Of a stretch of DNA of 64,000 nt, positions 7,618 to 55,134 are shown in pieces. Numbering within the stretch: the stretch's first letter is position 1; every line of letters starts with the position of its first letter. The translations under genes were made by a program, and so were the position numbers. Source of the stretch: an uncultured Gammaproteobacteria bacterium (lineage in GTDB: Bacteria; Pseudomonadota; Gammaproteobacteria; Steroidobacterales; Woeseiaceae); the NCBI GenBank assembly GCA_937899415.1, contig CALBPI010000069.1, positions 4,280-68,279 on the forward strand, read 5' to 3'. The notes beneath the pieces are model-generated. The model saw nothing but the letters and a program-made list of their open reading frames with translations. It made no database searches and was not told where the DNA came from.

Positions 7618-8123
7618 GCCATCACCGCCGCGCGGCAACCGCCGCGCTGGCGCTGCTTTTGGCCTGCAGTGCGGTTGCACACCAGGCGCGGGAAGCGGTC
7701 ACGCGCGTGTTGTTCAACAACCGCACGGGCAACATCGAGGTGATGCACCGCTTTCTTGTGCACGACGCCGAGCACGCCGTGCGCGACATCGTGGGCGCTG
7801 ATGCTGACATCCTGAGTTCAAAGGCCACGCGCGACCAATTTGCGGCCTACGTCAGCAAACGCTTCAAGATGCGGGACCAGGACGACAACTGGCTTGAGCT
7901 CACACCCGTCGGGCACGAGATCGAGGGACAATTTCTCTGGGTCTACGCCGAGACGCCGATACCCGAGAACCTCGAGGCGCTCGCGATGAGCCACAACGCA
8001 CTGCGCGACATCTGGCCGGACCAGGTCAACCTCGTGACCGTAGAGCGTGACGGCGAATCTCAGTCCGCCTTGTTTGCCGGCGGCACGCCTTCAGTAACGA
8101 TCGACTTCGACTCGGGGTCTTAG
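7602..8123 (+). CDS. Small secreted protein, DUF6702-like
   Basis: A signal peptide (AALALLLACSAVA) is followed by HQAREAVTRVLFNNRTGNIEVMHRFLVHDAEHAV. This resembles the DUF6702 pattern found next to M1 peptidases in Bacteroidetes. It overlaps the M1 gene stop. An alternative GTG start is at 7614. Confidence 0.55.
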   Translation: MRRRVSHHRRAATAALALLLACSAVAHQAREAVTRVLFNNRTGNIEVMHRFLVHDAEHAVRDIVGADADILSSKATRDQFAAYVSKRFKMRDQDDNWLELTPVGHEIEGQFLWVYAETPIPENLEALAMSHNALRDIWPDQVNLVTVERDGESQSALFAGGTPSVTIDFDSGS

Positions 8124-9226
8124 GGCCCCGCCTCGATGGTCATCACGAGCGGCAGGTGGTCCGACACACCGCGGCGACGCTCGAGATCGAAGCGCCGCAC
8201 CGTGCCGTCTTCATTGAGCTGATCGCGGTAGCCGTTCGCGAGGTAAACACCGCCCGTGCGGATGCGCCAGGATTCCTGCGCCGCGGGTGCCGGTGAGAAC
8301 AGCACCATGTCCAGAAACGACCAGCTCTTGCCGGTGCGCCAGTAGTTGGTGCCGATGCAGCCGTCGCAATCGACTTCGTGCGCCACGCGCCAGTAAGGCC
8401 GCACACGATCATCCATGATGCTGGTGTCGGTCATCTCACGGTTAGGCGTGTTGAAGTCGCCCGCGGCAAACACCACGTGGGCATCGGGCACATTGGCCCG
8501 CAGCTCGTTGAGATGGTCGTAAGCCAGCTCGCGCATCTCGATGGGATGGAACGGTGCCGGGAAGTGTACGGCAAAGCCTGTGAGCAGCCTGCCATCGGGT
8601 AACTCGAACGTGGCTTCGAGCACACCGCGCGTGTCATCCGCCCGGTCGGGGAACGCATCCATGTTGAACGGGTGCAACACGGGCATACCGCGAATCGGCA
8701 GCCGGGACAAGAACGCCACATCGATCCCGCGCAGGTCGCGCCCCTCGAGAAGCACGAGCTCGCGGTAACCCGCCGCGCCCAGGTAGTCGCGCGTCAGGCG
8801 CTTTAAGATGTTGACGTTCTCGACTTCCTGCAACGCGATGATGTCGGGCCCGCGCCCGTCGTTCACCTGCAGGATCGCCGCCGCCACCTGTTCAAGCTTG
8901 AATTCGAGCGCTTCATCGCTCCAGTCGAGCTCGAGGCATTCGCTGCGCCAACGGGGCACCTCGATGGGCTCGCAGAGTGCCTTGTGCGCCGCCGTCTGCT
9001 TCATCGCAACCGGCAGGTAGGCGTGGTCGTCCTTGCCCGGGTCGTCCGTATTGTCGAATAAGTTCTCGACGTTGAAGGTCATGATGGTGACCGTTGGCGC
9101 CTCCGCCGCGGTCGCCGGCTGCGTGCTATTGATGCCGCAGGCGTTCAACAACAACGCACACAAGAGTGGCGCGGCACGCCACAGGCGCGCGCCCGTTTGT
9201 ATTGCAGTTACCCGCCGTTCACCCAT
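8120..9226 (-). CDS. Endonuclease/exonuclease/phosphatase (EEP) family lipoprotein
   Basis: Motifs are TIMTFNVENLFD, PDIIALQEVEN, AAGDFNTP and GVSDHLPLVM. I chose the internal start MGERR...LLCALLLNACG (lipobox) at 9226, 16 nt after the upstream gene's stop. The track ORF extends to 9376. Confidence 0.8.
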   Translation of the reverse strand: MGERRVTAIQTGARLWRAAPLLCALLLNACGINSTQPATAAEAPTVTIMTFNVENLFDNTDDPGKDDHAYLPVAMKQTAAHKALCEPIEVPRWRSECLELDWSDEALEFKLEQVAAAILQVNDGRGPDIIALQEVENVNILKRLTRDYLGAAGYRELVLLEGRDLRGIDVAFLSRLPIRGMPVLHPFNMDAFPDRADDTRGVLEATFELPDGRLLTGFAVHFPAPFHPIEMRELAYDHLNELRANVPDAHVVFAAGDFNTPNREMTDTSIMDDRVRPYWRVAHEVDCDGCIGTNYWRTGKSWSFLDMVLFSPAPAAQESWRIRTGGVYLANGYRDQLNEDGTVRRFDLERRRGVSDHLPLVMTIEAGP

Positions 9227-9242
9227 ACGCCTCACCTGCTGT

Positions 9243-11012
9243 TCATTCCGGCTCCAGTAACCAGTACCCGGCGTCGATGCCCGTCGGCACGTAGTTATCT
9301 GCTGAGGGCTCGAGAATGCGCGCCTCACGAAACAGTATCGCAAGGTCACGCAACATGAGGCGACTGTTTGCGACATAGGAGTGCCCCTTGGTCGCCTGGC
9401 TCACATCGACCGTCTGCATGGGCGGTGCCACCATCGGCCTCGGGTGTGTTTCGCCGGCACGCTGGTAGTTTTCCTCGTCGCCACCCTGCAGCGCACGCGA
9501 CAGCAACAGCGCCGAATCGTGAGCCGACGCATAGAGCGTCACACCGTCGGTGATACGGTCCAGCGCTTCGATCTTCTGCGCCAGCAGGTCCCGCTTGATA
9601 TCTGGCGCGGCGAATACCAGCTGGCCAAACGCATTGTCCGGCAAACCGTCCGCCGACAGTTTCTCGACAGCCTGTGACAGCGCCCGCGTGCCCATGCTGT
9701 GCGCGATCAGGTGGATGCGTGTTGCGCCCGATTCCCGGTGCAGCTCCTCAAGGAACTGGCGCAGGTGCAGCACGCTGGTTTCGACATTCGCGGCATCGGT
9801 CAGGTAGTCAAGGACGGCGCCCTGCGACGGCCAGCTGAAGAATACCGGCGCACCGGGGAACTGCATGTCGTGCGCAATCTGCGCCGTTCGAAATGCTGCG
9901 TCCTGGAACGTGTTGTGGAAGCCGTGCACGAAAACGAACGCCTGCTTCTCCGGGTCCCGCGCCAGTGTCTCGGAGAGTTCGGCATAGAATGTCTCGTCGT
10001 CAGGCGGCGTCACTGCGGCAAGCTGGAAGTGCTTGGTAGGGTCCACCGCGAATTCGAGCCGGATGAGACTGGGCCGGTTAAGCTCGCCCGCGCGCCGCTT
10101 GGGCGGAATCGAGACACTGACCCAGCCCCGTTCATAGGGCGTGCCGTATGCATCCGCCTCGCGAATCTCATTACCAAACTTGACCTTGAGGATGGCGTCG
10201 TCCTGGCGCATCAGGAGCGACTTCTGCAGCCCCAGGCCGCCGAGCACCACGATGGCAAGCCCGCCGACCACCCGCACGACCAGGCCCAGGCGACTTTGGT
10301 GTTCTTCCTTGATATAGCGGCGGATGGCGCGCGTGAGCAACGCGGTAAGCACGAGTGCCACGGCAAAGCCCAGGAAGGGCTTCAGGTAGTCCCCGAAGGT
10401 CCGCGACAGGCGCACCCGGTTGGTCGCGAAATACACGCGCTTGAGAATGGGAGTGTCGTCAGCAAGGTCCTCGAGTTCGACCTCGGCGGCCATGACCTCG
10501 GTCGTTGTCGCTTGGTCGGCACGCACGATGGCGCCCGCCGGCGCCAGGTTGGGTAGCATATCGACCTGCCGGCGCGCCTCCTCCAACTCGCGCGCCAGCA
10601 CGGCATTCTGCTCCGCCAGCTGCCGCACTCTGTTAACGCTGGCTTCGCTGGCGGCGCGGGCTTCAGCAACACGTATCTCGGCTTCCCGCGCTTCCTGCAT
10701 CGCGCGCGCCTCCACGTCGCGCAATGCTTCGGCCAGTGCCGCAGCGCGTGCCTCGGCTGCCGCCGCAGCGGCGCGCGCCTCGGCCAGGGCGGCCTCAGCA
10801 TCGGCCAGTTCCTGCTCCAGCTGCGCAATCCGCGCCTCGCGCGCCGCGAGCGTGGTCTCGTGATCTGCGACGCGCTGCTCGAGCCGATCGACCTGCGTGT
10901 CCTGACGTTGCGTCACGCCATCTTCGGCACTGTCGCGGGCACAAGCTGTCAGCAGCGCGACCAGTACGACCGCAACACCCCTATTCATGGCGGTGGAACT
11001 GTGCATCTTCAT
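9243..11012 (-). CDS. DUF900-family alpha/beta hydrolase with an N-terminal lipobox, a coiled coil and two TM helices
   Basis: The N-terminus is MKMHSSTAMNRGVAVVLVALLTAC (lipobox). An Ala/Glu/Arg-rich heptad region of ~150 aa follows, then two hydrophobic helices (FLGFAVALVLTALL and VVGGLAIVVLGGLGL). The DUF900 core is FVFVHGFHNTFQDAAFRTAQIAHD...PVFFSWPSQG...IHLIAHSMGTRAL, where GxSxG takes the form HSMG. Its start overlaps the upstream stop (ATGA). Confidence 0.8.
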   Translation of the reverse strand: MKMHSSTAMNRGVAVVLVALLTACARDSAEDGVTQRQDTQVDRLEQRVADHETTLAAREARIAQLEQELADAEAALAEARAAAAAAEARAAALAEALRDVEARAMQEAREAEIRVAEARAASEASVNRVRQLAEQNAVLARELEEARRQVDMLPNLAPAGAIVRADQATTTEVMAAEVELEDLADDTPILKRVYFATNRVRLSRTFGDYLKPFLGFAVALVLTALLTRAIRRYIKEEHQSRLGLVVRVVGGLAIVVLGGLGLQKSLLMRQDDAILKVKFGNEIREADAYGTPYERGWVSVSIPPKRRAGELNRPSLIRLEFAVDPTKHFQLAAVTPPDDETFYAELSETLARDPEKQAFVFVHGFHNTFQDAAFRTAQIAHDMQFPGAPVFFSWPSQGAVLDYLTDAANVETSVLHLRQFLEELHRESGATRIHLIAHSMGTRALSQAVEKLSADGLPDNAFGQLVFAAPDIKRDLLAQKIEALDRITDGVTLYASAHDSALLLSRALQGGDEENYQRAGETHPRPMVAPPMQTVDVSQATKGHSYVANSRLMLRDLAILFREARILEPSADNYVPTGIDAGYWLLEPE

Positions 11013-14000
11013 TTCTTGAGACTCCTGGCGAAGGCCTCGGCAATCTGCTTCGGCAGCTTGCCGGCCTGCATCAGATTGACCGCAATACTCAAGACACGGA
11101 CCCGTCCCTTGTAGGCGATTTCCACACGCAACGCCACATCGTCAGGCAGCAGGGGGCGCACCGACTTCTCGAAGCGCACGGACCGGATGTTGGGGATACC
11201 GGAATCAATGCCCTCGTCCACGCTGCGACGGACATCGGCCAACACCTGTTGGTTCTTAGGCATGCTCTTGAGCACGCGCTCTGCCGAAAGCCGTTGCTTC
11301 GTCGCCGCTGGCAATTCGTCGATCGCCTCTATGGCCTGCTTCACTAGCTTTACCTGCGTCTTGCTCAGCACGGGTTTGTGCCGGTATAGCAGGATGCCGG
11401 GGAAGCCCTTGAACTCGCCCAGGCGTATTTCTGCAACGTTCTCGCGGATCAGCGCCTTGAGCGCGCGCTTGAGGTTGGTGCGGTAGCGTCTGTCTATTTT
11501 GGCCTTCGCCGCATTTTGCACCGCCGTGAGTTTGTCGATCCAGGGCTCAGCCGCCTCGCGCGCTTCCTTGGGCGCAAACGGCTTGGCCCCCGCGACAATA
11601 AGCTTCCTGCCGACGTGCTTGCCCGCCCAGCTGTCCATCATGGCGTGCACAGAGCGTTTGCTGGTCTTGCTGGCAATGCGCCGCTTCACCTCGGCGCAGA
11701 CTGGCGGAATGTTGCGCCGAACGCCCCGCAGACTCGCCTCGAAACTGTCCTTTTTCTTGATGGCCGAGATCAGCATGTTGTAGCCGTCGGAAACCTCGTT
11801 GCCCACGGCCTTGTTGGCGACGGACTTGAGCCCCTTACGGAAGGACGCGCTGAAGCCCTTGGGCAGCTCGAGCTCGAAGCCAGCGTTGAACAGTGAGTTT
11901 CGCTTGCCCGGCAAAGACAGAAACATCGTCGCACTGAGATCGCCAACCTTGAGCTCCGCTGGCTTGAACATCAGGCCATCGGCGCTCGCCACCGCGCTGG
12001 TACGCACCTCGATCCGGTCGCGGCCTGGCGTATCCCAGACCACGGTGCCGGAGATGGCCAGACCACCGGCGTCGATCTTGAGAGTGCCCTGCAACCAGAA
12101 GTCGTCAGCCAACACGAGGCGGATGCGGGCCTCGAACAACTCACCCGGCACCACCTTGAGCGAGCCGCCCAGCGCAAAGGTCTTGCGGGCGATCTGCAAG
12201 GCGATTTCGCCGGCGACGTTGACGGCGACCTTGTCGGAGTCGTCCCGCACCCGGCGCGTCTTGACCAGACCGTTGATACGAACCGCCAACAGCCCTTCCG
12301 GGCCGATTTGCAATGTCTGACGAACCGCAAGCTGGCGGTTGCCGGGCCCCGTCAGGGCCATACCGAACTGGGTCTTGCTGCGAATGAGGTTGACCCGGCC
12401 CACCTTGATCGCCGCCTCGCCCATCATGAGGACGAGATAGCCCTTGTCGTATGGTGCGCCGCCCATGTTGACCGGCGTGCAGCCGATCATCGCGACGGGG
12501 TCGGCCTTGGCCAGCTTGCGCATCGCCGACTTGCTCTTCATGACCACGTTGCGAAACTCCGCATCGGTGGTCACGCAACACACGGCACGAAAGCTCAGCG
12601 GACCGAATGCCATATCAATGTCGCTGATCCGAGGCCACTTCGTGGCACGCCCCTCTCGATAGGACAACGGCACCGTTCGGATCAGCCAGCCCGCGTTGCC
12701 CGCCTTGATACCGTCGATGCCATGCGCCAGCGTGTCGGCCATCTCGAGTGGCGGCAGTGCGCGATCTATGCCGATGCGCGCGCCGCCCAGATAATTCGGC
12801 AACGACAAGGTCGCCGGACCCAGCGTAAAGGGCAACGCCAGGCTGTCGGGCAAATTGTCGTCCTGATGAAGGAAGACCTGGTCATCCGTAAAAAACCGCA
12901 CCAGCGAGACGACCAGACGCACCCAGTCGCCCAGCGAGGGCTCCGGGTCCGGAAACGCCGCCTGCAACTGCATGCCGAGCCCCAGGAAATTGCGATAGCG
13001 CCAACCCAGCTCGTCGTAGAACAAGGGCATGGGCACGGGAGCGGCCATCGGCACCAGCGCGACGAGCTTGCGCAAGGTCACTCGATTGGTGATGGCCTCG
13101 CCCTTGCCACTCAGCAGCGCGAACACTAGGTTGACGATATCGAGCCGGTCGATCCAGCCGTCGAAGCGCACCACACCCAAGGCGCCGCCGCTGGAGACGC
13201 CAAAGCCCACCTCATAAAGCGTAACGCCCATGAGAGCCGGCAGGGGTGGTACTCCCGCGACGGTCGGCATGATGACGCGGATTGGTTTGTCGTCCTCGAC
13301 ACCAACGGTCACATGGGCGCCGCCACCGGGCTCGATCGCAAGGTCAAAGCGGAAATTGGTTGGAATGTGTAGCTGCAGATAGTCCTCGAAATCCGCAGGC
13401 AAATTGTCGATACCCTGCGCCAGCGCGTCAGCCAGTTTCTCGAACGCGGCGGTGACCGCCTTCGATGGGGTGCCGAGCATATCGAGCAATTGGGGCACGA
13501 CCTCGGGCGAGGCGAGGTCCAGCTCACGCAGTGGAATGCAATCCGGCATCTTGTTTAGTAGGGCATCCGGCAGGCCACATTTGCGCGCGAGCCAGCGAAC
13601 GGGCGTCAGGGGTAACGAAAGACCATCGCTTGAGAGCACGCCGCCGCTTGCCCGCCAGCGCCCCCCCTTGAAGTCGAAGGTGAGTTCGGGCACCAGAAAA
13701 CTCAGCGTGCCGATGCCCTCGAATTGATGCCACTCGGTCCACAGCGACCCGTCGGGTAAGGTGCGCAGCGCAATGGCTCGAAACGGCGAGGTCTTGGGCT
13801 GTACGCGAACGCCGCCGTCGACGACCAGCGCAAGGTCCAGACGCTCGACAAAAACATCGGCACCGCCCAGCAGACGGTTGAGTCGGTCCAGCGCGTCTAC
13901 GCGCAGATCGGCACCGAGCTGCCAGGTATTGCCCGCGCCGGAACGGCGCCGTATGCCGATGGCGCGCACCGACACATCGGGTGCCGGTATCGCGTCCGAG

Positions 14001-16066
14001 CCGATATCGAGCGCCAGGCTTTGCAAACCGTCCGATTCGAGCTGCAGTGCGATCTCATGCGCCCCGAGCTGCAGTGTGGCGCGCACTTCGGTCTCGGGCA
14101 GCAACACGCTGACAGGAAACGGGACGCCTTCAAAGTGTACTCGTGCGTCGGCCGTGACCTGCCACGGCGCCTCGCGGCCGCTGCGCGCGAAACCAACCGA
14201 TAGCAGGGACACGACCGTAGCCGCGGCCTCAGGCTGATCCGGATCGATGGACAGCGGTAACCGCACGGCCTGATCGCCGGCATCCGGGTTGGGTGTCAGC
14301 TGAATACCATTGGCCGACAGCGACACCTGCGCCTGGTAAGTCATCAGGTCAGGCAACTCGAGCGCGCCCAGCGCCTGCAGTGCCGTACTGCGCTGCTTGC
14401 CCACGCGGCTGACCACCATCGCGACCTGCTCAAGCCACAGCGTTGCCACATCGGGCACTAACGCCACCTGAACCGGCGTCGTGACAGACAGCCGCAATGC
14501 CGAGCCCTGGCCTGATTGTTCATAGCTCGCGCGCAAAGCGACCGGGCGGTCGAATAGCGAAGCCTCAAGGTCGCCAGCAACCACCCACGCGCCGTCGGCG
14601 CCGAGATTGAAACTGAGCTCAACACCGCCCAGCACGAGTGCCGTATCGATCGCGATGGGCCCGTCAGCGCTTACGGCGAGTTCGGCGATGGGCGGCTTAC
14701 CGGCGCGCAGCGCAAGCTGCAGGCGGCAGGTCAGCGCCGTCGGTGAGCCCGTGTCGAAAAGATCTGCGTGAACCGTGACCGAAGACTGCAGGCGCAACAC
14801 GCCCTGGCTGCCCGAGATCTCGAGCGCCGTAGAACCGAACGCAATTTCCGGTAGCTCAGGAGGTGCGGTCACATCAAAACGCGCCAATAGCGCCACCAGG
14901 GTCGTCGGCCGCAGGCTGCCTGCCAACTCGGTATCGCGCCCGATGGCGCCCCGCACGGCCACACGCTCGCCGCCGACTACGGTCGTCGCGTAAAGCCGTG
15001 CACCGGGATTGTCCGCCGACAGCTCGAGGTCGAGCTGCAGGCCCTGCAATGTGGCGTTGGTGCCCGGAATCGGCCAATCGCCTTCGAGCGTACTCATCGC
15101 CTGCAGACGCTTGCCGGGCCAGTCGGCGTCAACGCTAAGTTGCCGAATAGACAACGCCGGCAATAGGTCGGGCGGCGCAGACCCGGCAAGACCACGATAG
15201 AGCGACGCCAATGACACGCCCGACTCGTTGTCCAGCGCGCCGCGGAAGCGGAACTGCGGCAGCTCGCCAGACAGCGCGATGGCAGTGCCCCCAATCCTTA
15301 GCGTGGCGCTGGCACCCATCGAGACGCGGCGCCGCGCCGCATCGGTGAGGCTCTGGCCCTGCAGCGATACCGCGAACGACGCCAGCGTGACGCCATCGAA
15401 TGGCGTTGCAACCTCGGGCACGCGCAAACCCAGCTCGACGGCGGCGGGCACGAAGGTACCGGCCCGCAGCGCCAAAGCCAGCGTGGTCAGCTCAATCTCA
15501 CCGCGCAGCTGATCGACCGGCAGCTCAGCCAGCAAGCTGCCCAACCCACTGGCCTCGAGCAAGCCGGACAATGCGGCAAGGTCGAACGTCTGGTTTTCGA
15601 CCCAAACGTCGATGGTGTCGGTGCTGGATGCGATGCGCAGCGTATGTTGCTGGCCGCGCACCGCAATGGTGACCACCAGCGTCGGCTCGGCCATGAGCAA
15701 CGCCTCGCCGGTGCCGCCCATCGCAACATGCAGTTGGGCATCAATGAGCCGCGCCTGTTCGAGAAACGGCAGCGCTACGGCCGATGACGGCAAAGCGCAA
15801 TCGAGATGCCCATGCCAGGTGTCGTCTGAGCCCTCAAGCGTCAGCGACGCCGACTGCTCAGGCAAACCGAAGGGACGCACGGGTCCGCGCGCAGCCACGA
15901 TGGCGCCATCGGCCTCGGCCATTGTGAAGGCCCAGGTCTCCACACCGGGTACCCGGTCCTGCAGCAGTGCCAGATTGTCGAGCGCCACGTCGTCGAGCCA
16001 CGCGTCACCGCGACGCAGGTTGGCTGCCACTGTGTCCATCCAGACTGTTGGGCGTCGCGCGCTCAT
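11009..16066 (-). CDS. 1685-aa hypothetical protein with no recognisable domain (orphan giant)
   Basis: This is a single uninterrupted ORF in GC3-rich host-like coding sequence, with ATGA overlaps to both neighbours. I see no signal peptide, TM helix or catalytic motif. The first ~1350 aa are Ala/Leu/Gly/Val-rich and beta-like. The last ~330 aa are Lys/Arg-rich and helical. Confidence 0.8.
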   Translation of the reverse strand: MSARRPTVWMDTVAANLRRGDAWLDDVALDNLALLQDRVPGVETWAFTMAEADGAIVAARGPVRPFGLPEQSASLTLEGSDDTWHGHLDCALPSSAVALPFLEQARLIDAQLHVAMGGTGEALLMAEPTLVVTIAVRGQQHTLRIASSTDTIDVWVENQTFDLAALSGLLEASGLGSLLAELPVDQLRGEIELTTLALALRAGTFVPAAVELGLRVPEVATPFDGVTLASFAVSLQGQSLTDAARRRVSMGASATLRIGGTAIALSGELPQFRFRGALDNESGVSLASLYRGLAGSAPPDLLPALSIRQLSVDADWPGKRLQAMSTLEGDWPIPGTNATLQGLQLDLELSADNPGARLYATTVVGGERVAVRGAIGRDTELAGSLRPTTLVALLARFDVTAPPELPEIAFGSTALEISGSQGVLRLQSSVTVHADLFDTGSPTALTCRLQLALRAGKPPIAELAVSADGPIAIDTALVLGGVELSFNLGADGAWVVAGDLEASLFDRPVALRASYEQSGQGSALRLSVTTPVQVALVPDVATLWLEQVAMVVSRVGKQRSTALQALGALELPDLMTYQAQVSLSANGIQLTPNPDAGDQAVRLPLSIDPDQPEAAATVVSLLSVGFARSGREAPWQVTADARVHFEGVPFPVSVLLPETEVRATLQLGAHEIALQLESDGLQSLALDIGSDAIPAPDVSVRAIGIRRRSGAGNTWQLGADLRVDALDRLNRLLGGADVFVERLDLALVVDGGVRVQPKTSPFRAIALRTLPDGSLWTEWHQFEGIGTLSFLVPELTFDFKGGRWRASGGVLSSDGLSLPLTPVRWLARKCGLPDALLNKMPDCIPLRELDLASPEVVPQLLDMLGTPSKAVTAAFEKLADALAQGIDNLPADFEDYLQLHIPTNFRFDLAIEPGGGAHVTVGVEDDKPIRVIMPTVAGVPPLPALMGVTLYEVGFGVSSGGALGVVRFDGWIDRLDIVNLVFALLSGKGEAITNRVTLRKLVALVPMAAPVPMPLFYDELGWRYRNFLGLGMQLQAAFPDPEPSLGDWVRLVVSLVRFFTDDQVFLHQDDNLPDSLALPFTLGPATLSLPNYLGGARIGIDRALPPLEMADTLAHGIDGIKAGNAGWLIRTVPLSYREGRATKWPRISDIDMAFGPLSFRAVCCVTTDAEFRNVVMKSKSAMRKLAKADPVAMIGCTPVNMGGAPYDKGYLVLMMGEAAIKVGRVNLIRSKTQFGMALTGPGNRQLAVRQTLQIGPEGLLAVRINGLVKTRRVRDDSDKVAVNVAGEIALQIARKTFALGGSLKVVPGELFEARIRLVLADDFWLQGTLKIDAGGLAISGTVVWDTPGRDRIEVRTSAVASADGLMFKPAELKVGDLSATMFLSLPGKRNSLFNAGFELELPKGFSASFRKGLKSVANKAVGNEVSDGYNMLISAIKKKDSFEASLRGVRRNIPPVCAEVKRRIASKTSKRSVHAMMDSWAGKHVGRKLIVAGAKPFAPKEAREAAEPWIDKLTAVQNAAKAKIDRRYRTNLKRALKALIRENVAEIRLGEFKGFPGILLYRHKPVLSKTQVKLVKQAIEAIDELPAATKQRLSAERVLKSMPKNQQVLADVRRSVDEGIDSGIPNIRSVRFEKSVRPLLPDDVALRVEIAYKGRVRVLSIAVNLMQAGKLPKQIAEAFARSLKK

Positions 16067-18066
16067 GCGTCTAGGTTCAGCAGCAGCTGCAGCGCAGACA
16101 GCTTGTCTTCGGTATTGGCTAACCCGGCAATGGCGAGCACCGCCTCATCACGCATCTCGATGATGCGCGCGTCGTTGAGGTCATTGAGTTGTTGGCGCAC
16201 GTCCTCGATTGTTGCGCGATCGAAATAGGTCGCAGACACCACGCGACCGCGCGCGTTGTAGAGCGCTCTCGATTCCAGGCGATGATAGTAGGCCGGTATG
16301 TCGTGGTGGCTGAGATCGTCATAGTCATGCTGGTCCGTATGCAGCTGATCCGCGGGATGGGCCGCATTGCCCGCGCCAAGGGCAAGCTTTGCGGGAGGAT
16401 GCAGGAACGCATCCACGCGATGCCACGCGGGCCGGTCCGGCGTGTTGGCTTGGCCTTCGGGATTGCGCGTGCTGTGAGCGGAGGCCGTGATAATGCCGAG
16501 CGCACGCATATAGCCCGCACTCGGCACGGGTACCGCGCGCGCCATGCAGTCACCCATGGCGTCGATCCATGTCGTAAATTCCGGCTGATTGTTTGCAATC
16601 AGGGTCAGCGTGTGTTGCATGGCCGCCCCGATGCGCGCAGTCTGCTCGCGCGGCAGAACGCGGCGCCAGCCCGAACCGTGCAGTTCGACCACCCGGTTGC
16701 TTGCCGGCACACTCCTGATCGAGTCTACGGAATCGAGATACATGCGGGAGGTACCATCGAGCTGGATGCCAATCGCCTGCTGCTTGATGAGCCAGCCTGT
16801 CAGCCCACCCGTCTCCTGTTTGTCCGCGTCATTCTCACCGCCGGCACCACCCGGTGCCGATTTGTCCGATACCGCCGCCGTACCGGGCAGTGACGTGATG
16901 GGGCCGGAGAAACTGACTTCCAGATCAATGGGTACCGGCAGCTTGTCGTGCGCAATGATGTTTTCGAGGTGCAAGTCAGACCACGAAAACACGCGTGCAA
17001 TTGCCAGCCACGCGCCCCAGGTACGATAGAACACGTCGCTCTGCTCCGTGGTGGTCAGCCAGTCGGAAGCCGCGAAATCCGCGTCACTGACCGGCCCCGC
17101 TGGCAAGCCGTCAATGCCCGCCTCGGGCGCATGGCGGAGAAACTCAATGTAGCCGTAGGAGTTGCCAACCGGCAATTGGTTGTCGTTGACCTCAAGCCCG
17201 CTACCCGGGTGCCTGGGCAAGATCCGGTAGGTCGGTAGTTCCGGCACGTTCGGGTTGAGGCCGGCCTGCAGGCGCAACGCGTTGATCAGTTCGGCCAAAC
17301 TCTGCGGCGGCGCGTCATCCCCGTAGGGGTTGTAGGCATCGGTGCGACCGCAGAAGCGGTAGTCCATCTCGATGTCGGAGGGCTTGTAGACGAGTTTGTG
17401 TAGCCCCTCGTTGGCGCCGGCCACTTGCAGCGAGAAGAACAGGACCGCGCGGCCACGTTTGTGGGTATCGCCACCCGAGGGGGTGATCCTGACCAGCGCC
17501 GTGATGCCCGCGTCGTCGAAGAAGACGTTGCTGATGGTCTCGCGGTCGCCTGCCAGACGCTGAACGGCCAGCGCCATGCTGCTCCTGAACTGCTCGCTGA
17601 CGCGCTCCAACAGGACGCGAGTCGTCGCGTGGTACTCGAAAAACACATCGATGCCGGGCCGTCTGGTCTCGGTATCGACAATCAGCTCGGGGATGATGAG
17701 CCATTTGAAGTAGCGGTCGTAGATTCTGTCGGCCTGCTCGGGCTTGTCATCAGAAATGATGGCGTCGTAGGTCCGGCGCAGCTTGTTGATCTCGCTGATC
17801 TGCGGGGGCGGGCGCCAACGGTGACGCTTTCGCTCCAGATACTCGCGCAGCTCGTAGAGATCTCTGGCAACGGCTGCGGCCGTCAGCCGGTCCAGCAACT
17901 CGATAAGCGGCCGGACCAGCTGCGGGTCTTCAAGCGCTTGCACGGCGAACGGGTTTTGCGTCGCCACCTCATTTAGGCGTGTGATCACGGGAACGACGAA
18001 GCGCTCGTAGATCCGCCAGCGCTTCTTGCAGGGCGCCAGGCTTTTTAGCTGACTTTTATTGAGCAC
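16063..18066 (-). CDS. Stand-alone LanM-type dehydratase/kinase-like domain protein (DUF4135), no LanC domain
   Basis: The motifs PSGGDTHKRGRAVLFF...HKLVYKPSDIEMDYRF and SDLHLENIIAHDKLPVPIDLEVSF (DxHxxN followed by a metal-binding D) match the class II lanthipeptide synthetase N-terminal domain. The DIPAYY motif lies further downstream. The protein is 667 aa and ends without any LanC-like GxxHG, WCxG or CHG motif. The GTG start at 18066 is uncertain. Confidence 0.75.
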   Translation of the reverse strand: MLNKSQLKSLAPCKKRWRIYERFVVPVITRLNEVATQNPFAVQALEDPQLVRPLIELLDRLTAAAVARDLYELREYLERKRHRWRPPPQISEINKLRRTYDAIISDDKPEQADRIYDRYFKWLIIPELIVDTETRRPGIDVFFEYHATTRVLLERVSEQFRSSMALAVQRLAGDRETISNVFFDDAGITALVRITPSGGDTHKRGRAVLFFSLQVAGANEGLHKLVYKPSDIEMDYRFCGRTDAYNPYGDDAPPQSLAELINALRLQAGLNPNVPELPTYRILPRHPGSGLEVNDNQLPVGNSYGYIEFLRHAPEAGIDGLPAGPVSDADFAASDWLTTTEQSDVFYRTWGAWLAIARVFSWSDLHLENIIAHDKLPVPIDLEVSFSGPITSLPGTAAVSDKSAPGGAGGENDADKQETGGLTGWLIKQQAIGIQLDGTSRMYLDSVDSIRSVPASNRVVELHGSGWRRVLPREQTARIGAAMQHTLTLIANNQPEFTTWIDAMGDCMARAVPVPSAGYMRALGIITASAHSTRNPEGQANTPDRPAWHRVDAFLHPPAKLALGAGNAAHPADQLHTDQHDYDDLSHHDIPAYYHRLESRALYNARGRVVSATYFDRATIEDVRQQLNDLNDARIIEMRDEAVLAIAGLANTEDKLSALQLLLNLDA

Positions 18067-18104: not shown

Positions 18105-21100
18105 CTACTCCTGCCACACGGGTACGCGCCCCGGCGTGTGGGGCGAGCCCATGCGTTCCAGAGTTTCCTCGAGCGCCGTGAGGTCACGCTCGATGCCACG
18201 CAAGTCCGTCAGCGCCGAGCGGAAGGCGCTGGCCGCCATTGCGTAGGAGGACTCGTACATCTCGGGCACATCGGAACGCACATTGAGCAGCAGCCCGTAG
18301 ACGGCACCCGCACGCCGGGAGATCGACCAAGGCGTGGCCTCGTTGCGCGACGCCACCGTACGGTCGCCATTCAGCGCGACGACGAGGTCATCGAGGCGCG
18401 TCTTGATCTGACGCAGACGTTGCTCGTGCGACTCGTCGGCCGCCGGCGTATCCGTCAGCGCCGCCTTGAGGTGCGTGATGCGCGTGTTGAGCTCGCCCGT
18501 TAGCGCGCTGGCACCGGCCACCGCGCGGTAGAGCTCCCCGGCTTTGCGCTGGAACGCGGTAACGGCGCTGAGGTCCAGGCTCGTTTCCTTGCCCTGCGGC
18601 ATCGACTTGACCGTGAACGTCTTCGGCCCTGCAACCTCCTCAAGCGCGCCGTTCTGGCGAACCGCCAGGCTCACGGTGTACTCGCCGGGCGCTGCCAGCG
18701 GACCCTGCGGCGGTGAGGCCCAGGGCACCGAGACCGGTGTCGACAAGTCGACGGGATCGGTCGGCGGGTAGCGCAGGTCCCAGGCTGTGCGATGCACACC
18801 GGCGCCCGTTTTGCCGGCAACGCGACGCACGACATTACCGTCTGTGTCGCGAACGATCAGCATCACGGCCGGGTCTTCCTCGCGATCCTCGGCGCGCAGC
18901 GCCTCCCAGGAGGGGTACGGCGTACCGCCACCTTCCTTCTCGATCTCAATCTCCGCCTTGCGGCGCGTCTTGCTGGCGGACTCCAGGCCTTTCTCGAGGC
19001 GGTACGTAAACACGGCGCCGAACGGCGGGTTGTCGGCGTTGTAGTGCGTCGCACCGAAGAAGCCCTTCACGCCGTAACCGATGTTGTCACCGACGACGTA
19101 AGACCAGGCATCACGCACGTCGAACAGATGCTGTGCTTCGAGATCGCCGGCTGCCGTGCGCAGCGGTGTGTAGTCGTCGAGGATGTAGATGCCGCGCCCA
19201 AAGGTGCCGACCACGAGATCGTTCTCTCGTCGCTGGATTTCGATGTCGCGCACAGCGATTGTCGGGAAGTTACCCTTGAGCTGGTGCCAGGCATCACCAC
19301 CGTCCTGCGAAAAGAACACACCGAACTCGGTGCCGACGAACAACAGATCGGCGTCGACATGGTCCTGCACGATCGTGTGCGCCGAACCCCACTCGGGCAG
19401 GTTGTTCGAGATCAGCGACCAGCTGCGCCCCCGGTTCTCGGTCTTGAGCACGTAAGGCTTGTAGTCGCCACGCTTGTGGTTGTCGATGGTGGCGTAGGCG
19501 ACATCGGGGTCGTGCAGCGAAGCGACGACATCTTCGATGAGCGACATGTCGGGCACGCCGCGGAACGAATCGACGCGACGCCAGGTTTCGCCACCGTCTT
19601 CGGTGACGTTCATGACGCCATCATCGGTGCCCACGTAAATCAGGCCCTCGCTGAGCTCGCTCTCCGAAAGCGCAATCGCTGCGCCATAGATCGACGTAGA
19701 GTTGTTCTTGGCGATCGTGTCCACGCTCCAGACGCGGCCCATGACCTCAAGCGCATTGCGGTCGAGCTGTCGCGTCAGATCCGGGCTCACGGCTCGCCAG
19801 CTGTTGCCGCGGTCATCCGAGCGGAAGAGCTTTTCCGCAGCGTAGTAAATCCGCTTGCTGTTGTGCGGGCTGACGATCAGCGGCGTGTTCCAGTTCCACT
19901 TGTAGGCGTTTTCGCCATCGGCCGGGTGCGGCGCGATGAACACGCGCTCGCCACTGGTTCTGTCGTAGCGGGCGAGGCCACCGTACTGGTACTGCGTGTA
20001 GATGATATTCGGGTCTTCGGGGTCGAACTGCGGCTCATAGCCGTCGCCACCGAGGATCAGCGTCCAGTCGGCATTCGTGATGCCGTGGCGCATCGTCGTG
20101 CGCGAGGGACCGCAGAGCGAGTTGTTGTCCTGCGTACCGCCACAGACGTTGTAGAACGGCTCCGAGTAGTCGGGCTGTATGCGGTAGAACTGGGCAATAG
20201 GCAGGTTCGCGATCCAGCGCCAGTTCGCACCGTCGTCGTAGGTGTCGTAAATGCCACCGTCACCTCCGATCACGAGATGCGACGGCTCGTCGGGGTCAAT
20301 CCAGAGCGCGTGGTCATCCACGTGACGGTGGTCGCCGCCGTAGCGTGACCACGTTGAACCGCCGTCGACCGACACGTGCGTAAACGTATCGACCGAGAAC
20401 ACGCGGTCGGGATTCGTCGGATCCACAACCAGCTCGTTGTAGTACTGCGGGCTCGAGGTCATGTGGCCCGAGCGCTTATCCCAGGTCAGGCCGAAGTCAT
20501 CGGAGCGGTAGATGCCCTGCTCGTCTGACTTGGCCTCAATGATCGCGTAGACGCGGTCCGCATCACCCGGTGCGCCCGCAAGACCGATGCGACCCATGTT
20601 GTCCTTGGGCAGGCCCGATGAGATTTCGGTCCAGGTCTCACCGCCATCTGCGCTGCGGTGGATGCCGCTGCCGGGTCCGCCGTTGATGAGCGTCCAGACA
20701 TGGCGGCGGCGCTGGTAGCTCGAGGCCACGATGCGGCTGCTGTCGCGCGGGTCGACGACGAACTCGTTGATGCCCGTGTCGGCATCGACAGAGAGGATCT
20801 GCGTCCAGTTCTCGCCACCGTCCGTGGTCTTGTAAAGGCCGCGGTCGCCGCCCGAATTCCAGAGCGGGCCCTGGGCCGCGACGAGCACGGTGTCGCCGTC
20901 CTCGGGGTCGATCCAGATCTGGCTGATATGGCCCGAGTTCTTGAGCCCAACGTTGGACCAGCTCGCGCCGCCATCAAGCGACTTGTAGACGCCGTCGCCG
21001 TAACCCACGCTGCGCTGCGCGTTGTTCTCGCCCGAGCCGACCCACACCGTGTTGGGGTTGGAAGGATCCAGCTCAACGACGCCCAGCGCGTAGCTGCCTT

Positions 21101-21353
21101 CGCCGTCAAACAACGGCTTCCAGGTCGTGCCGTTGTTCTCTGTCTTGAACAAACCGCCCGAGGCGACCGACGCGTAGTACACGCTCTTGTTGTCGGGGTG
21201 GAACGCAAAGTCCGAGATGCGCCCTGAGATTACTGCAGGACCCATCGTGCGCAGCGGCAGGCTGGCCAGCGGGTGTTTGTCGTCAGCCAGCGCCGGCGTC
21301 GGAGTCGCTGTCACAAGCGTGCAGGCGAGCAGCACAGAGATCAAACGAGTCAT
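18105..21353 (-). CDS. Sortilin/VPS10-like BNR (Asp-box) repeat protein, secreted
   Basis: It carries repeated Asp-box motifs: FKTENNGTTW, YKSLDGGASW, YKTTDGGENW, HRSADGGETW, YRSDDFGLTW and SVDGGSTW. I chose the internal start MTRLISVLLACTLVTATPTPALA (signal peptide) at 21353, which has an AAGGA RBS. The track ORF extends to 21512. Confidence 0.85.
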   Translation of the reverse strand: MTRLISVLLACTLVTATPTPALADDKHPLASLPLRTMGPAVISGRISDFAFHPDNKSVYYASVASGGLFKTENNGTTWKPLFDGEGSYALGVVELDPSNPNTVWVGSGENNAQRSVGYGDGVYKSLDGGASWSNVGLKNSGHISQIWIDPEDGDTVLVAAQGPLWNSGGDRGLYKTTDGGENWTQILSVDADTGINEFVVDPRDSSRIVASSYQRRRHVWTLINGGPGSGIHRSADGGETWTEISSGLPKDNMGRIGLAGAPGDADRVYAIIEAKSDEQGIYRSDDFGLTWDKRSGHMTSSPQYYNELVVDPTNPDRVFSVDTFTHVSVDGGSTWSRYGGDHRHVDDHALWIDPDEPSHLVIGGDGGIYDTYDDGANWRWIANLPIAQFYRIQPDYSEPFYNVCGGTQDNNSLCGPSRTTMRHGITNADWTLILGGDGYEPQFDPEDPNIIYTQYQYGGLARYDRTSGERVFIAPHPADGENAYKWNWNTPLIVSPHNSKRIYYAAEKLFRSDDRGNSWRAVSPDLTRQLDRNALEVMGRVWSVDTIAKNNSTSIYGAAIALSESELSEGLIYVGTDDGVMNVTEDGGETWRRVDSFRGVPDMSLIEDVVASLHDPDVAYATIDNHKRGDYKPYVLKTENRGRSWSLISNNLPEWGSAHTIVQDHVDADLLFVGTEFGVFFSQDGGDAWHQLKGNFPTIAVRDIEIQRRENDLVVGTFGRGIYILDDYTPLRTAAGDLEAQHLFDVRDAWSYVVGDNIGYGVKGFFGATHYNADNPPFGAVFTYRLEKGLESASKTRRKAEIEIEKEGGGTPYPSWEALRAEDREEDPAVMLIVRDTDGNVVRRVAGKTGAGVHRTAWDLRYPPTDPVDLSTPVSVPWASPPQGPLAAPGEYTVSLAVRQNGALEEVAGPKTFTVKSMPQGKETSLDLSAVTAFQRKAGELYRAVAGASALTGELNTRITHLKAALTDTPAADESHEQRLRQIKTRLDDLVVALNGDRTVASRNEATPWSISRRAGAVYGLLLNVRSDVPEMYESSYAMAASAFRSALTDLRGIERDLTALEETLERMGSPHTPGRVPVWQE

Positions 21354-21382
21354 GGTGTGTCCTTTATCTTTGTTTTCAGAGC

Positions 21383-23261: not shown

Positions 23262-23966
23262 TTAGAACGGGCTGCCGCGAGCCTCGCGAATCGGTTGGCA
23301 GCCCGGGTGCTGTTTCAACCAGGCCTCAACAGCGGCGATGTCCTCGACATCCGCGTACTTGAGCATCATGTCACAGAGGTTCGCGAAGTGCGGGATCTCG
23401 TGTTTGTCGGCCACGCACTCCTCGGGAATGATCGTGCGGTAGCCGTGTGACAGCGAGGCGACGCAGGACGCGCGCACGCAGCCAGAGGTGCTGCCGCCCG
23501 TCAGGATCACGGTGTCCACCTTGTGCCAGACGAGCAGCGACGGGATCAGCGTGTCGTGAAACACGCTGGCCATGCGTTTGTTGATGACGGCGTCGCGGGC
23601 GCGGTCGATCTCGAGCCGCGGGTCGAGCTCGGACCGCTCCGAGTCTTCGCGAATATTCTGCAACGAATCCGGCGTGTTGGTGCGCGTACCCCAGGCGCCC
23701 GCGTCGTCGGCGCTGTCCATGTAGGCCACGTAGGTCCAGATAACCGGCATGTTTTTGGACCGCGCCAGCGCCGACAGCCGGTTGATGTAGTCCAGCTGGT
23801 TCGGGTCGGTCTGGTAGGCCGTCTTGAAGGTCTCGGTGTCGGTGTAGGCACGCTGCAGATCGATATTGATGATCGCGGCCTTCTCACCAAAGCCGAACTT
23901 GGCCCGGTTCGGGTTGCGCTTGATCTCGGCCCAGTACTCACGGGGCGTCAGGTCAGAGGTTTGCAT
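23262..23966 (-). CDS. Isochorismatase-family cysteine hydrolase
   Basis: AAIINIDLQRAY, VDTVILTGGSTSGCVRAS (catalytic Cys context) and the ~230-aa size are typical of isochorismatase and N-carbamoylsarcosine amidase-like hydrolases. Confidence 0.8.
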   Translation of the reverse strand: MQTSDLTPREYWAEIKRNPNRAKFGFGEKAAIINIDLQRAYTDTETFKTAYQTDPNQLDYINRLSALARSKNMPVIWTYVAYMDSADDAGAWGTRTNTPDSLQNIREDSERSELDPRLEIDRARDAVINKRMASVFHDTLIPSLLVWHKVDTVILTGGSTSGCVRASCVASLSHGYRTIIPEECVADKHEIPHFANLCDMMLKYADVEDIAAVEAWLKQHPGCQPIREARGSPF

Positions 23967-44627: not shown

Positions 44628-44641
44628 ACAGGAGCATCACG

Positions 44642-54897: not shown

Positions 54898-55134
54898 TTA
54901 TGGCAACGTTGCCGTCGCACCATCGACACTGCCCGTCACCGGTATCGTGGAACCGTCGTTTCGATCGATCACTTCAACGGCAGTGAGCGATGCCTGGAAT
55001 GTCGTCGCAACGGGTGGCGGCGGGGTGACGACGACGTCGCCGCCACCTCCACCGCCCCCACCGCAGGCGCCAAGCGTGCCGGCCACGGCAAGGAGTAGTA
55101 TCGCGTTCGAGATTCGGAAGCGTTTAGAAGTCAT
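54898..55134 (-). CDS. 78-aa lipoprotein, translationally coupled to the giant surface protein
   Basis: MTSKRFRISNAILLLAVAGTLGACGGGGGGGGDVVVTPPPP has a classic signal peptide and lipobox followed by poly-Gly and poly-Pro linkers. Its ATG lies inside the last codons of the upstream gene (GTGACGTATGACTTCTAA). It ends just before the terminator. Confidence 0.6.
   Translation of the reverse strand: MTSKRFRISNAILLLAVAGTLGACGGGGGGGGDVVVTPPPPVATTFQASLTAVEVIDRNDGSTIPVTGSVDGATATLP

Follow-up and report, generated by a model that had tools for sequence, protein, structure and literature searches.

A 64,000-nucleotide (nt) stretch of DNA from an uncultured gammaproteobacterium of the Woeseiaceae (contig CALBPI010000069.1, positions 4,280 to 68,279; this whole stretch is called the window below) carries a gene for a giant protein of 1685 amino acids (aa), here termed BIG, which belongs, as a typical and full-length example, to a large family of bacterial proteins of 1.3-4 kaa (thousand aa) that has been neither named nor studied. 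The BIG gene overlaps the end of a gene for a stand-alone DUF4135 protein related to the dehydratase domain of LanM lanthipeptide synthetases and, as judged from gene order and motif comparison, the giant family forms a conserved gene partnership with a DUF4135 protein whose predicted catalytic motifs are intact. We rate both the family and the pairing as new, because they lie far from every library tested (Pfam, NCBIfam, PADLOC and PHROGs, the PDB in sequence, profile and fold searches, and BFVD in fold searches) and because their sole detectable kin, the DUF6603 proteins, are themselves uncharacterised. The two genes are as follows.

11009..16066, minus strand: the giant-protein gene BIG, 1685 aa from its ATG, a full-length member of the unnamed family (open reading frame (ORF) and translation).
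16063..18066, minus strand: the DUF4135 gene, 667 aa, stand-alone, LanM dehydratase-like and of the protein-kinase clan, its stop overlapping the BIG start (ATGA).

An exhaustive HMMER scan of 1.84 billion cluster representatives (clusters at 50% identity), with residues 486-1685 of BIG as query, recovered 348 relatives at E<=1e-3; of these, 288 reach E<=1e-10 and 143 reach E<=1e-30, and lengths of 1300-4000 aa predominate. Exact look-ups placed members in Aestuariirhabdus haliotis (WP_249735643.1) and Methylomonas methanica MC09 (WP_013820187.1), as well as in gammaproteobacterial metagenome-assembled genomes, Vicinamibacterales, Longimicrobium, Calothrix sp. NIES-4071 and Desulfobacteraceae, and the family extends across Gammaproteobacteria, Acidobacteriota, Gemmatimonadota, Cyanobacteria and Desulfobacteraceae; a survey of taxonomic spread had been proposed in an earlier reading made from the letters of the window alone (the sequence-only reading), and the HMMER scan answers it with at least five bacterial lineages. 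The names given to relatives by their sources are all 'hypothetical' or LamG-related (the Calothrix sp. NIES-4071 member is a 'LamG domain-containing protein'), and no paper was found, in the literature searched, on DUF6603, PF20248, Metme_3604 or the WP accessions of the family. Homologues were first reached through large genes that follow DUF4135 homologues in other contigs. A 1687-aa homologue (locus L003) is 38% identical to BIG in a BLASTP alignment running from residue 6 to at least residue ~1496, matches positions 29-1647 of the 1650 in the family profile, and shares with the window the same overlapping stop and start with the gene upstream; a truncated homologue (L002) is 66% identical over 919 residues, and a third (L015) is full-length at 1762 aa.

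BIG is a genuine, intact, native and translationally coupled gene. The ORF call and translation agree with the 1685-aa frame at 11009-16066 on the minus strand given by the sequence-only reading, and the ATGA coupling that it described is present at both ends: at 16063-16066 (context gcATGAgc) the stop of the upstream gene overlaps the BIG start, and at 11009-11012 (context aaATGAag) the BIG stop overlaps the start of the gene downstream. The same reading had called the codon style native and the protein devoid of transmembrane segments, and both statements hold: the GC content at third codon positions (GC3) is 0.78, within the 0.72-0.87 spanned by neighbouring genes, with an overall GC content like that of the rest of the window, and no transmembrane segment was found in BIG, the highest Kyte-Doolittle mean in 19-residue windows being 1.59. 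Comparison of BIG with Pfam, NCBIfam, PADLOC, PHROGs and PDB sequences gave no match.

Two sets of searches, taken by themselves, would favour the view that BIG is a high-GC ORF that is spurious or in decay, or else an orphan restricted to its lineage and without conserved function: word-index homology searches returned self only for full-length BIG and 7 matches for a 27-sequence profile, missing homologues at 38-66% identity, and scans of species-representative genomes with back-translated motifs found no relative. The word-index result is, however, a method artefact, because Ala/Leu/Gly-rich words likely fill the list of 8000 candidates, and the lack of a match from such a search is not evidence of orphan status for giant proteins that lean towards low complexity. 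A scan of viral contigs with back-translated motifs also found no relative, and a metagenome scan yielded 2 loci only. The 348 related cluster representatives, the colinear 38% homologue and the truncated 66% homologue overturn the 'orphan' label of the sequence-only reading, and these relatives, the intact colinear homologues, the confident AlphaFold2 (AF2) models described below, the coding-type GC3 and the conserved gene pairing together rule out a spurious, decaying or lineage-restricted ORF, a view to which we attach virtually no probability.

BIG is modular, comprising an N-module, a core, a beta-meander, a variable module and a C-terminal domain; in order along the protein, these are as follows.

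13847..16066 (residues 1-740), minus strand: N-module, an N-terminal amphipathic helix followed by an acidic, Lys-poor, near all-beta region, common to the N-terminal part of DUF6603 proteins (AF2, composition and hhalign).
14387..15619 (residues ~150-290, 280-395 and 385-560), minus strand: tandem repeats of ~110-130 aa, each unit a helix-'LP' motif followed by a beta-meander (profile self-comparison).
12347..13846 (residues 741-1240), minus strand: conserved family core, mixed alpha/beta and family-defining.
11867..12346 (residues 1241-1400), minus strand: beta-meander of ~16 long antiparallel strands (DSSP on the AF2 model, in which model residues 511-700 correspond to protein residues 1211-1400).
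11306..11866 (residues ~1401-1587), minus strand: basic helical insert, subfamily-specific (charge profile and AF2 helices 1405-1541).
11012..11305 (residues ~1588-1685), minus strand: C-terminal domain of ~95 aa with helices, a three-stranded sheet and a terminal helix, conserved family-wide.

AF2 models were built on family alignments for residues 701-1685 (predicted local distance difference test (pLDDT) 82.7, predicted template modelling score (pTM) 0.58) and residues 1-1000 (pLDDT 82.4, pTM 0.52). The predicted layout begins with an N-terminal helix and ~700 residues of antiparallel strands, each of 10-17 residues and broken by short helices, as the sequence-only reading had anticipated in proposing an extended-beta body; a mixed alpha/beta core and a meander of ~16 strands (residues 1211-1400) follow, and the C-terminus is modelled as long helices (1405-1541 and 1569-1618), a small three-stranded sheet and a terminal helix. 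That reading had also seen no repeat family, which does not stand: residues 150-290, 280-395 and 385-560 match one another in hhalign with probabilities of 98.3% (E 1e-14) and 98.2% (E 5e-14), the repeat period in the N-module being ~115 aa, and jackhmmer finds 3-5 extra tandem copies of the N-module units in relatives. The repeats emerge at profile level only, since self-BLAST of BIG detected none.

Conservation is greatest in the core. Mean identity to BIG across 27 relatives peaks at 0.28-0.41 over residues 700-1200, against values of 0.09-0.20 over the first 700 residues and 0.16-0.18 over the tail, and the core is the region matched by most of 150 relatives among the matches listed. Invariant and near-invariant residues are concentrated in the core motifs (DGxxDxFD, PxPIPLFY, LPxYLGG, DxxKTGN, FGPL and WC(I/V)TTxxEF), and the invariant polar residues are N730, Y896, D973, K1121 and R1146. 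The beta-meander at residues 1241-1400 is present in 70 of the 165 related sequences examined. The C-terminal domain reaches further: residues ~1588-1680 gave 26 short matches in more distant relatives, and all but one, which is internal, lie at the very end of the protein (25 relatives). The domain also stands at the end of LamG-type relatives such as P0076 and P0067, with Pro1625 invariant. BIG thus carries, in colinear order, the N-module, the motifs of the 500-aa core and the C-terminal ~95-aa domain by which we recognise a 'PIPLFY-core' family.

What lies between core and C-terminal domain varies. LamG and pentaxin domains were found in the 18 largest relatives as Laminin_G_3 (14/18, with up to 7 matched stretches in one protein), Laminin_G_2 (7/18) and Pentaxin (5/18); one relative was already annotated with four further Pfam families, including Laminin_G_3 and Laminin_G_2, and in both relatives checked for position, P0076 and P0067, LamG directly follows the core and precedes the C-terminal domain. 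In BIG this position is taken by the basic insert. The switch to a basic, helical C-terminus reported by the sequence-only reading is evident in the contrast between residues 1-1350 (isoelectric point 4.96, 1.9% Lys) and residues 1351-1685 (isoelectric point 10.49, 10.7% Lys), set against 2.2% Lys in the window's predicted proteins, and in the AF2 helices from residue ~1405; its boundary, which had been put near nt 12000, lies nearer residue 1401 (nt 11866). Net charge in the insert (residues ~1401-1587) peaks at +16 per 100 aa and its helices reach 45 residues. Among the 165 related sequences examined, the insert is confined to a subfamily of 49 whose matches to the tail are full-length; there it is basic through Lys or Arg depending on genome GC, the basic character being compositional and not positional, and a SxxGLRxxLPxxC motif (Cys1457) is kept in this basic-tail subfamily. 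The suggestion in the sequence-only reading that the tail could bind nucleic acid or a membrane would be consistent with this compositional character and with the LamG domains that follow the core in relatives. Comparison of the tail profile with PDB sequences gave weak matches to generic helical bundles only, including apolipophorin-III and an F-BAR protein.

At the other end of the protein, the first 757 residues of BIG hold only 3 Lys (binomial P=4e-5). This depletion is not a family trait, because Lys makes up 4-10% of the N-module in lower-GC relatives, and we dropped it as a family signature on finding up to 9.7% Lys there. An 875-aa PKD/InlB-B-repeat protein encoded elsewhere in the window (44591-47218, plus strand) has 0.3% Lys, so that Lys-poor exported proteins recur in this genome, which provides a context for the N-terminal depletion in BIG.

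The N-module links BIG to a second set of giants. A 1424-aa protein encoded after a DUF4135 gene in locus L007 carries Pfam DUF6603 (PF20248) at residues 744-1244, and the N-terminal halves of the BIG family and the DUF6603 proteins are homologous (hhalign 99.5%, E 2e-22, residues 102-648; 99.4% in a second comparison); jackhmmer recruits all DUF6603 locus proteins, and BLASTP of BIG against the L007 protein gives E 1e-9. BIG resembles these uncharacterised giants in its N-terminal beta-meander repeats, in size (theirs being 1200-1600 aa) and in having a DUF4135 gene immediately before it. The C-terminal halves, in contrast, are unrelated: hhalign gives a probability of 0.3% between the BIG core and the DUF6603 region, BIG has no match to PF20248 even at E<=10 (gathering threshold 27 bits; the L007 control scores 480 bits), and none of the 27 family relatives tested has one either. 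BIG accordingly has one module in common with the DUF6603 proteins without belonging to them. The DUF6603 loci (L006, L007/L008, L009 and L012/L013) form a recurring cassette of their own, in which the DUF6603 giant and one or two DUF4135 genes are accompanied by genes for a protein of ~1200-1480 aa, a tail-collar/Gp10_C fibre-like protein and a protein of ~775 aa. None of these three accompanying proteins is encoded in the window, and Pfam annotates only the collar protein, DUF4135 and DUF6603 of the cassette.

The DUF4135 protein of the window matches Pfam PF13575 (E 3.7e-30) and, in part, TIGR03897 (score 111 against a cut-off of 304). It aligns to CylM (PDB 5DZT), and the motifs GDxHxRG and DLHxENIIAH...IDxE, which correspond to the phosphate-binding motif and the catalytic/Mg-binding motif in the kinase-like domain of LanM, are kept. 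DUF4135 is listed among the Pfam PKinase clan families in a survey of the Legionella kinome (PMC9758233), and the literature on DUF4135 was found to comprise work on peptides that are made on ribosomes and modified after translation (RiPPs) or kinase surveys only. Whilst the dehydratase/kinase-like domain with CylM-type motifs is as in LanM class II lanthipeptide synthetases, the window protein lacks the LanC cyclase domain, no precursor-peptide ORF was found in the 38-nt gap upstream of its gene, which is therefore too short to hold a precursor peptide, and the coupled gene encodes 1685 aa; we thus rejected a class II lanthipeptide (LanM) cluster, of which the DUF4135 part alone is present.

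The arrangement seen in the window, with DUF4135 directly upstream of an N-module giant gene, recurs in 7 other independent loci, and a profile search of all the loci fetched divides the giant loci as follows.

BIG-type giant loci (the window/L001, L002, L003 and L015/L016): DUF4135 directly upstream.
DUF6603-type giant loci (L006, L007/8, L009 with two copies, and L012/13): DUF4135 directly upstream.
N-module relatives found independently of DUF4135 (L014, L017 and L018): no DUF4135 directly upstream.

Counted from the DUF4135 side, an N-module giant lies immediately downstream in 7 of 9 independent loci, the other two being type VI secretion system (T6SS) loci. Identity to the DUF4135 protein of the window varies with the type of giant, being 37-53% for the partners of BIG-type giants that were looked up (P0004 and P0005) and 25-36% for those of DUF6603-type giants. 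In the T6SS loci, where its position is effector-like, the DUF4135 gene follows genes for VgrG and a PG_binding_1 protein (L011), or lies beside a PG_binding_1 gene and a DUF4123 adaptor-type gene (L010), where the T6SS core domains T6SS_VasE, DotU, IcmF-related_N, ImpA_N and T6SS_VipA are also encoded.

Given these motifs and this gene order, BIG might be the substrate of the DUF4135 enzyme, with Ser and Thr residues of the N-module phosphorylated and perhaps dehydrated, and with dehydro-residues or cross-links maturing a structural or envelope protein. Such a relationship would fit the retention of the CylM catalytic motifs in an enzyme that lacks a LanC domain and whose gene follows a 38-nt gap too short for a precursor ORF, the ATGA overlap of the two genes, and the way in which DUF4135 tracks an N-module common to two families with unrelated C-terminal cores; the near absence of Lys from the N-module (3 in 757 aa) would, moreover, limit stray Lys-dehydroalanine cross-links. 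We nevertheless consider it unlikely, since residues 1-740 contain no invariant or near-invariant Ser or Thr (the sole conserved Ser, S760, lies just past the boundary), lower-GC relatives have 4-10% Lys in the N-module, some close relatives have no adjacent DUF4135 gene, and DUF4135 homologues occur in T6SS loci without a giant partner.

The DUF4135 homologues of the T6SS loci (L010:5434-8304 and L011:8167-10548; 25-27% identity) lie directly after PG_binding_1 genes, and from this placement stand-alone LanM-like kinase-fold proteins may be T6SS effectors; a literature lead linking LanM with T6SS was a false one. At L015:756-3512, in a metagenomic homologue locus, and also in L016, DUF4135 and an isochorismatase domain are joined in one protein. 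In the window, isochorismatase is encoded by a gene of its own (23262-23966, minus strand), with two PuuE-like deacetylase genes also upstream on the same strand, and the fusion in L015 hints that the functional unit may extend to ~23966.

The predicted fold of BIG has no counterpart in the PDB or BFVD: Foldseek returned nothing at E<1e-3 for either AF2 model against the PDB (template modelling (TM) scores normalised to the query <=0.14) or for the C-terminal model against BFVD. The structure prediction and fold search that the sequence-only reading had recommended thus ended in models of pLDDT 82-83 and no significant match. The best matches, all at noise level, were DDB1 propellers, clusterin, the ApoB100 beta-belt, SlpA, porins/VDAC, YenB/RHS2 and TcdB-TccC, which have in common only long antiparallel sheets or long helices. 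The top ones (the ApoB100 beta-belt, the Deinococcus SlpA S-layer barrel, porins and VDAC) are large long-stranded antiparallel sheets, and their likeness to BIG is of secondary-structure type only, with a best E of 5.5e-3, TM (query) <=0.14 and root-mean-square deviations of 17-53 A; VDAC-type matches reach TM 0.22-0.25 only if normalised to the ~283-residue target.

AsmA/TamB-like, Tc-toxin-like and beta-solenoid folds had been named as candidates in the sequence-only reading, but the absence of Pfam and Foldseek matches and the long meander strands speak against all three. Like AsmA/TamB proteins, BIG exceeds 1000 aa and is mostly beta; unlike them, it has no N-terminal membrane anchor and no AsmA, AsmA_2, DUF490 or DUF748 match in Pfam or NCBIfam, and Foldseek offered only the TamA barrel at E 0.29, so that with neither transmembrane anchor, domain match nor fold match we rejected this identity. 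Tc and RHS proteins are not known to have a signal peptide, and they have interchangeable receptor-binding domains and long antiparallel beta-sheets. BIG resembles the Tc (ABC)/RHS cocoon systems in being a giant, in lying in a multi-gene locus and in having enzymes nearby, and YenB/RHS2 and TcdB-TccC are among its weak Foldseek matches (E 0.03-0.14, TM <=0.10). It differs from them in having no RHS, YD, TcA, VRP1 or SpvB match in Pfam, and in a conserved C-terminus where Tc/RHS proteins have a hypervariable toxin end; with matches of E>=0.03 and TM<=0.10 only, identity as a Tc toxin or RHS-YD cocoon was likewise rejected. A beta-solenoid also seems excluded, judging from predicted secondary structure only, as the AF2 strands are of 10-17 residues in meanders with a ~115-aa repeat, compared with the 3-6-aa strands and 18-30-residue coils of solenoids.

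Three further genes of the window bear on where BIG may act.

9243..11012, minus strand: DUF900 alpha/beta-hydrolase gene, a 589-aa putative lipoprotein (lipobox LLTAC; Pfam PF05990, E 1e-43) whose start overlaps the BIG stop.
8120..9226, minus strand: endonuclease/exonuclease/phosphatase (EEP)-fold gene, a putative lipoprotein (lipobox LLNAC; Pfam PF19580 and PF03372).
18105..21356, minus strand: BNR/sortilin-type beta-propeller gene, exported with a signal peptide and ending 38 nt before the DUF4135 start (Pfam and NCBIfam).

The layout of the DUF900 protein is unusual: between the lipobox and the hydrolase domain lie an Ala/Glu/Arg coiled coil of ~120 aa and, after it, two hydrophobic helices. 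The longest ORF of the EEP gene (8120-9376) overlaps the DUF900 gene by 134 nt; if translation is taken to begin at ATG 9226 instead, with AGGTGAGG before it, the two genes no longer overlap and a lipoprotein signal (…LLCALLLNAC) comes into view. A BNR homologue of 83% identity lies upstream of DUF4135 in the closest locus, L002, and L009 has an FG-GAP propeller in that position. Other genes beside giants encode, besides this FG-GAP propeller (L009), tail-collar/Gp10_C fibre-like proteins (L006 and L007), an EndoU nuclease (L012), a PF04185 phosphoesterase (L018) and a Hydrolase_4 esterase (L014). Promoter and terminator scans gave counts equal to shuffle expectation, which leaves the operon limits undefined.

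Our tentative reading, which we regard as possible rather than probable, is that BIG would serve as scaffold and bind the target, as the large subunit of a multi-protein system that is secreted or acts on the envelope. As a scaffold or carrier, BIG would belong to a system acting outside the cytoplasm, on a cell surface or membrane, with a logic akin to that of a toxin complex or adhesin. The variable module between core and C-terminal domain would be its target-binding head: in relatives the head may bind glycans through lectin domains, and in the subfamily of BIG the Lys/Arg-rich helices could bind polyanionic surfaces (phospholipid, lipopolysaccharide or nucleic acid) electrostatically. The N-module would have a dedicated partner in the DUF4135 protein, which may serve as cargo or effector or as a modifying enzyme. 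Export of BIG would be non-classical, because no family member appears to have a Sec signal: a signal-peptide-like N-terminus, of Sec or lipoprotein type, was seen in 0 of 129 full-length relatives, many of which start, by inspection, with an amphipathic helix of similar pattern. Action at a surface outside the cytoplasm is considered most likely because relatives carry lectin domains after the core, an indirect pointer, and because operon neighbours are predicted to be exported, namely the BNR propeller with its signal peptide and the two putative lipoprotein hydrolases.

Several observations weigh against this reading. BIG itself has no lectin domain, and its likeness to the Tc/RHS cocoon, porins and the ApoB beta-belt is noise (E>=5e-3, TM <=0.14). 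No secretion machinery (T6SS, extracellular contractile injection system, type I secretion system or holin/endolysin) turned up among the window ORFs scanned. The DUF900 and EEP genes were rejected as conserved partners, having no counterpart beside the L003 homologue or in the other loci fetched, and DUF4135 is not obligatory, because it is absent beside L014, L017 and L018. Few gene contexts were sampled, and the way in which they were found biases them in part; the secretion, localisation and binding of BIG are predictions only. A T6SS effector locus in particular was considered and rejected, as no VgrG, PAAR, Hcp, DUF4123, DUF1795 or DUF2169 was found among 31 window ORFs scanned, genes of this kind being seen only beside the distant DUF4135 homologues of L010 and L011.

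A bolder proposal, which we consider rather unlikely, is that the DUF4135-giant pair constitutes a new two-component module in which a LanM-type kinase/dehydratase would act on, or ride on, a folded beta-sheet protein of ~1,700 residues and not a RiPP peptide; with its interchangeable heads (basic helices or LamG arrays), such a module would represent an unrecognised class of non-classically exported toxin/adhesin complexes, of a predicted fold absent from the PDB.

The same operon can be read as part of an intracellular conflict (anti-phage or abortive-infection) system, in which BIG would be a large sensor or scaffold, the kinase-fold protein a signalling enzyme, and nucleases or hydrolases the effectors. 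The joining, in one operon, of a kinase-fold enzyme and an EEP-fold protein with a large protein that carries no annotation, and the presence of an EndoU nuclease in another locus, are suggestive of such a system, as are the absence of signal peptides from family members, the sparse and patchy occurrence of the family across phyla, and the transposases near some loci. We think this distinctly unlikely. PADLOC-DB 2.0 gave no match for BIG, DUF4135, EEP or BNR, and for DUF900 only coiled-coil noise (E>=4e-4), so that with no PADLOC model matched a known anti-phage defence system was rejected; the viral contigs scanned held no relative; and the neighbourhood is housekeeping rather than a defence island, the window being ordinary chromosome with genes for aconitase B, a 2-oxo-acid dehydrogenase E1 component, M1 and M3 peptidases and CobW, and with an extracytoplasmic function (ECF) sigma factor gene that adjoins one for a Ser/Thr kinase. 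The EEP and DUF900 proteins would, moreover, act outside the cytoplasm because of their lipoprotein signals, and the LamG and pentaxin arrays of relatives are, to our knowledge, not typical of cytoplasmic defence proteins.

Alternatively, BIG might bind or shuttle lipids as a beta-sheet protein of the ApoB beta-belt or AsmA-type bridge kind, working with a lipoprotein esterase and phosphodiesterase in envelope lipid remodelling, its basic amphipathic helices docking on anionic membranes. The ApoB100 beta-belt indeed heads the (non-significant) Foldseek matches of the N-terminal model, the weak tail-profile matches to amphipathic helix bundles include apolipophorin-III and an F-BAR protein, and lipase- or phosphoesterase-like neighbours recur (DUF900 and EEP in the window, Hydrolase_4 in L014 and PF04185 in L018). 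However, the structural matches are all at noise level (E>=5e-3, TM normalised to query <=0.14), BIG shows no membrane anchor or periplasm-directing signal and no AsmA, TamB or DUF490 match in Pfam, and lectin-bearing relatives favour glycan binding over lipid carriage, so that we hold this account to be improbable.

If the evidence is read rightly, at least 348 clusters at 50% identity, from at least five bacterial lineages, encode giant proteins with a confidently predicted fold that would be without counterpart among solved or viral predicted structures, in a family for which Pfam and NCBIfam hold no model and on which no papers were found. Through its recurrent pairing with a stand-alone LanM-dehydratase-like enzyme, the family would carry the known biology of that enzyme fold past lanthipeptide synthesis, and the post-core lectin domains of relatives point to a modular platform for target recognition. 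The family merits a domain model, with which thousands of 'hypothetical protein' annotations would no longer be orphan-like. It is substantial, structurally novel as far as prediction goes, and has an unusual enzyme partner, its activity being so far predicted only; it is also experimentally accessible, and the question can be put to the test because two cultured organisms, Methylomonas methanica MC09 and Aestuariirhabdus haliotis, carry homologues.

The window contains a second giant gene (55124-63196, minus strand), unrelated to the BIG family, whose 2690-aa product has a signal-anchor-like N-terminus and FG-GAP, TSP_3, Big_9 and Cadherin_5 domains.

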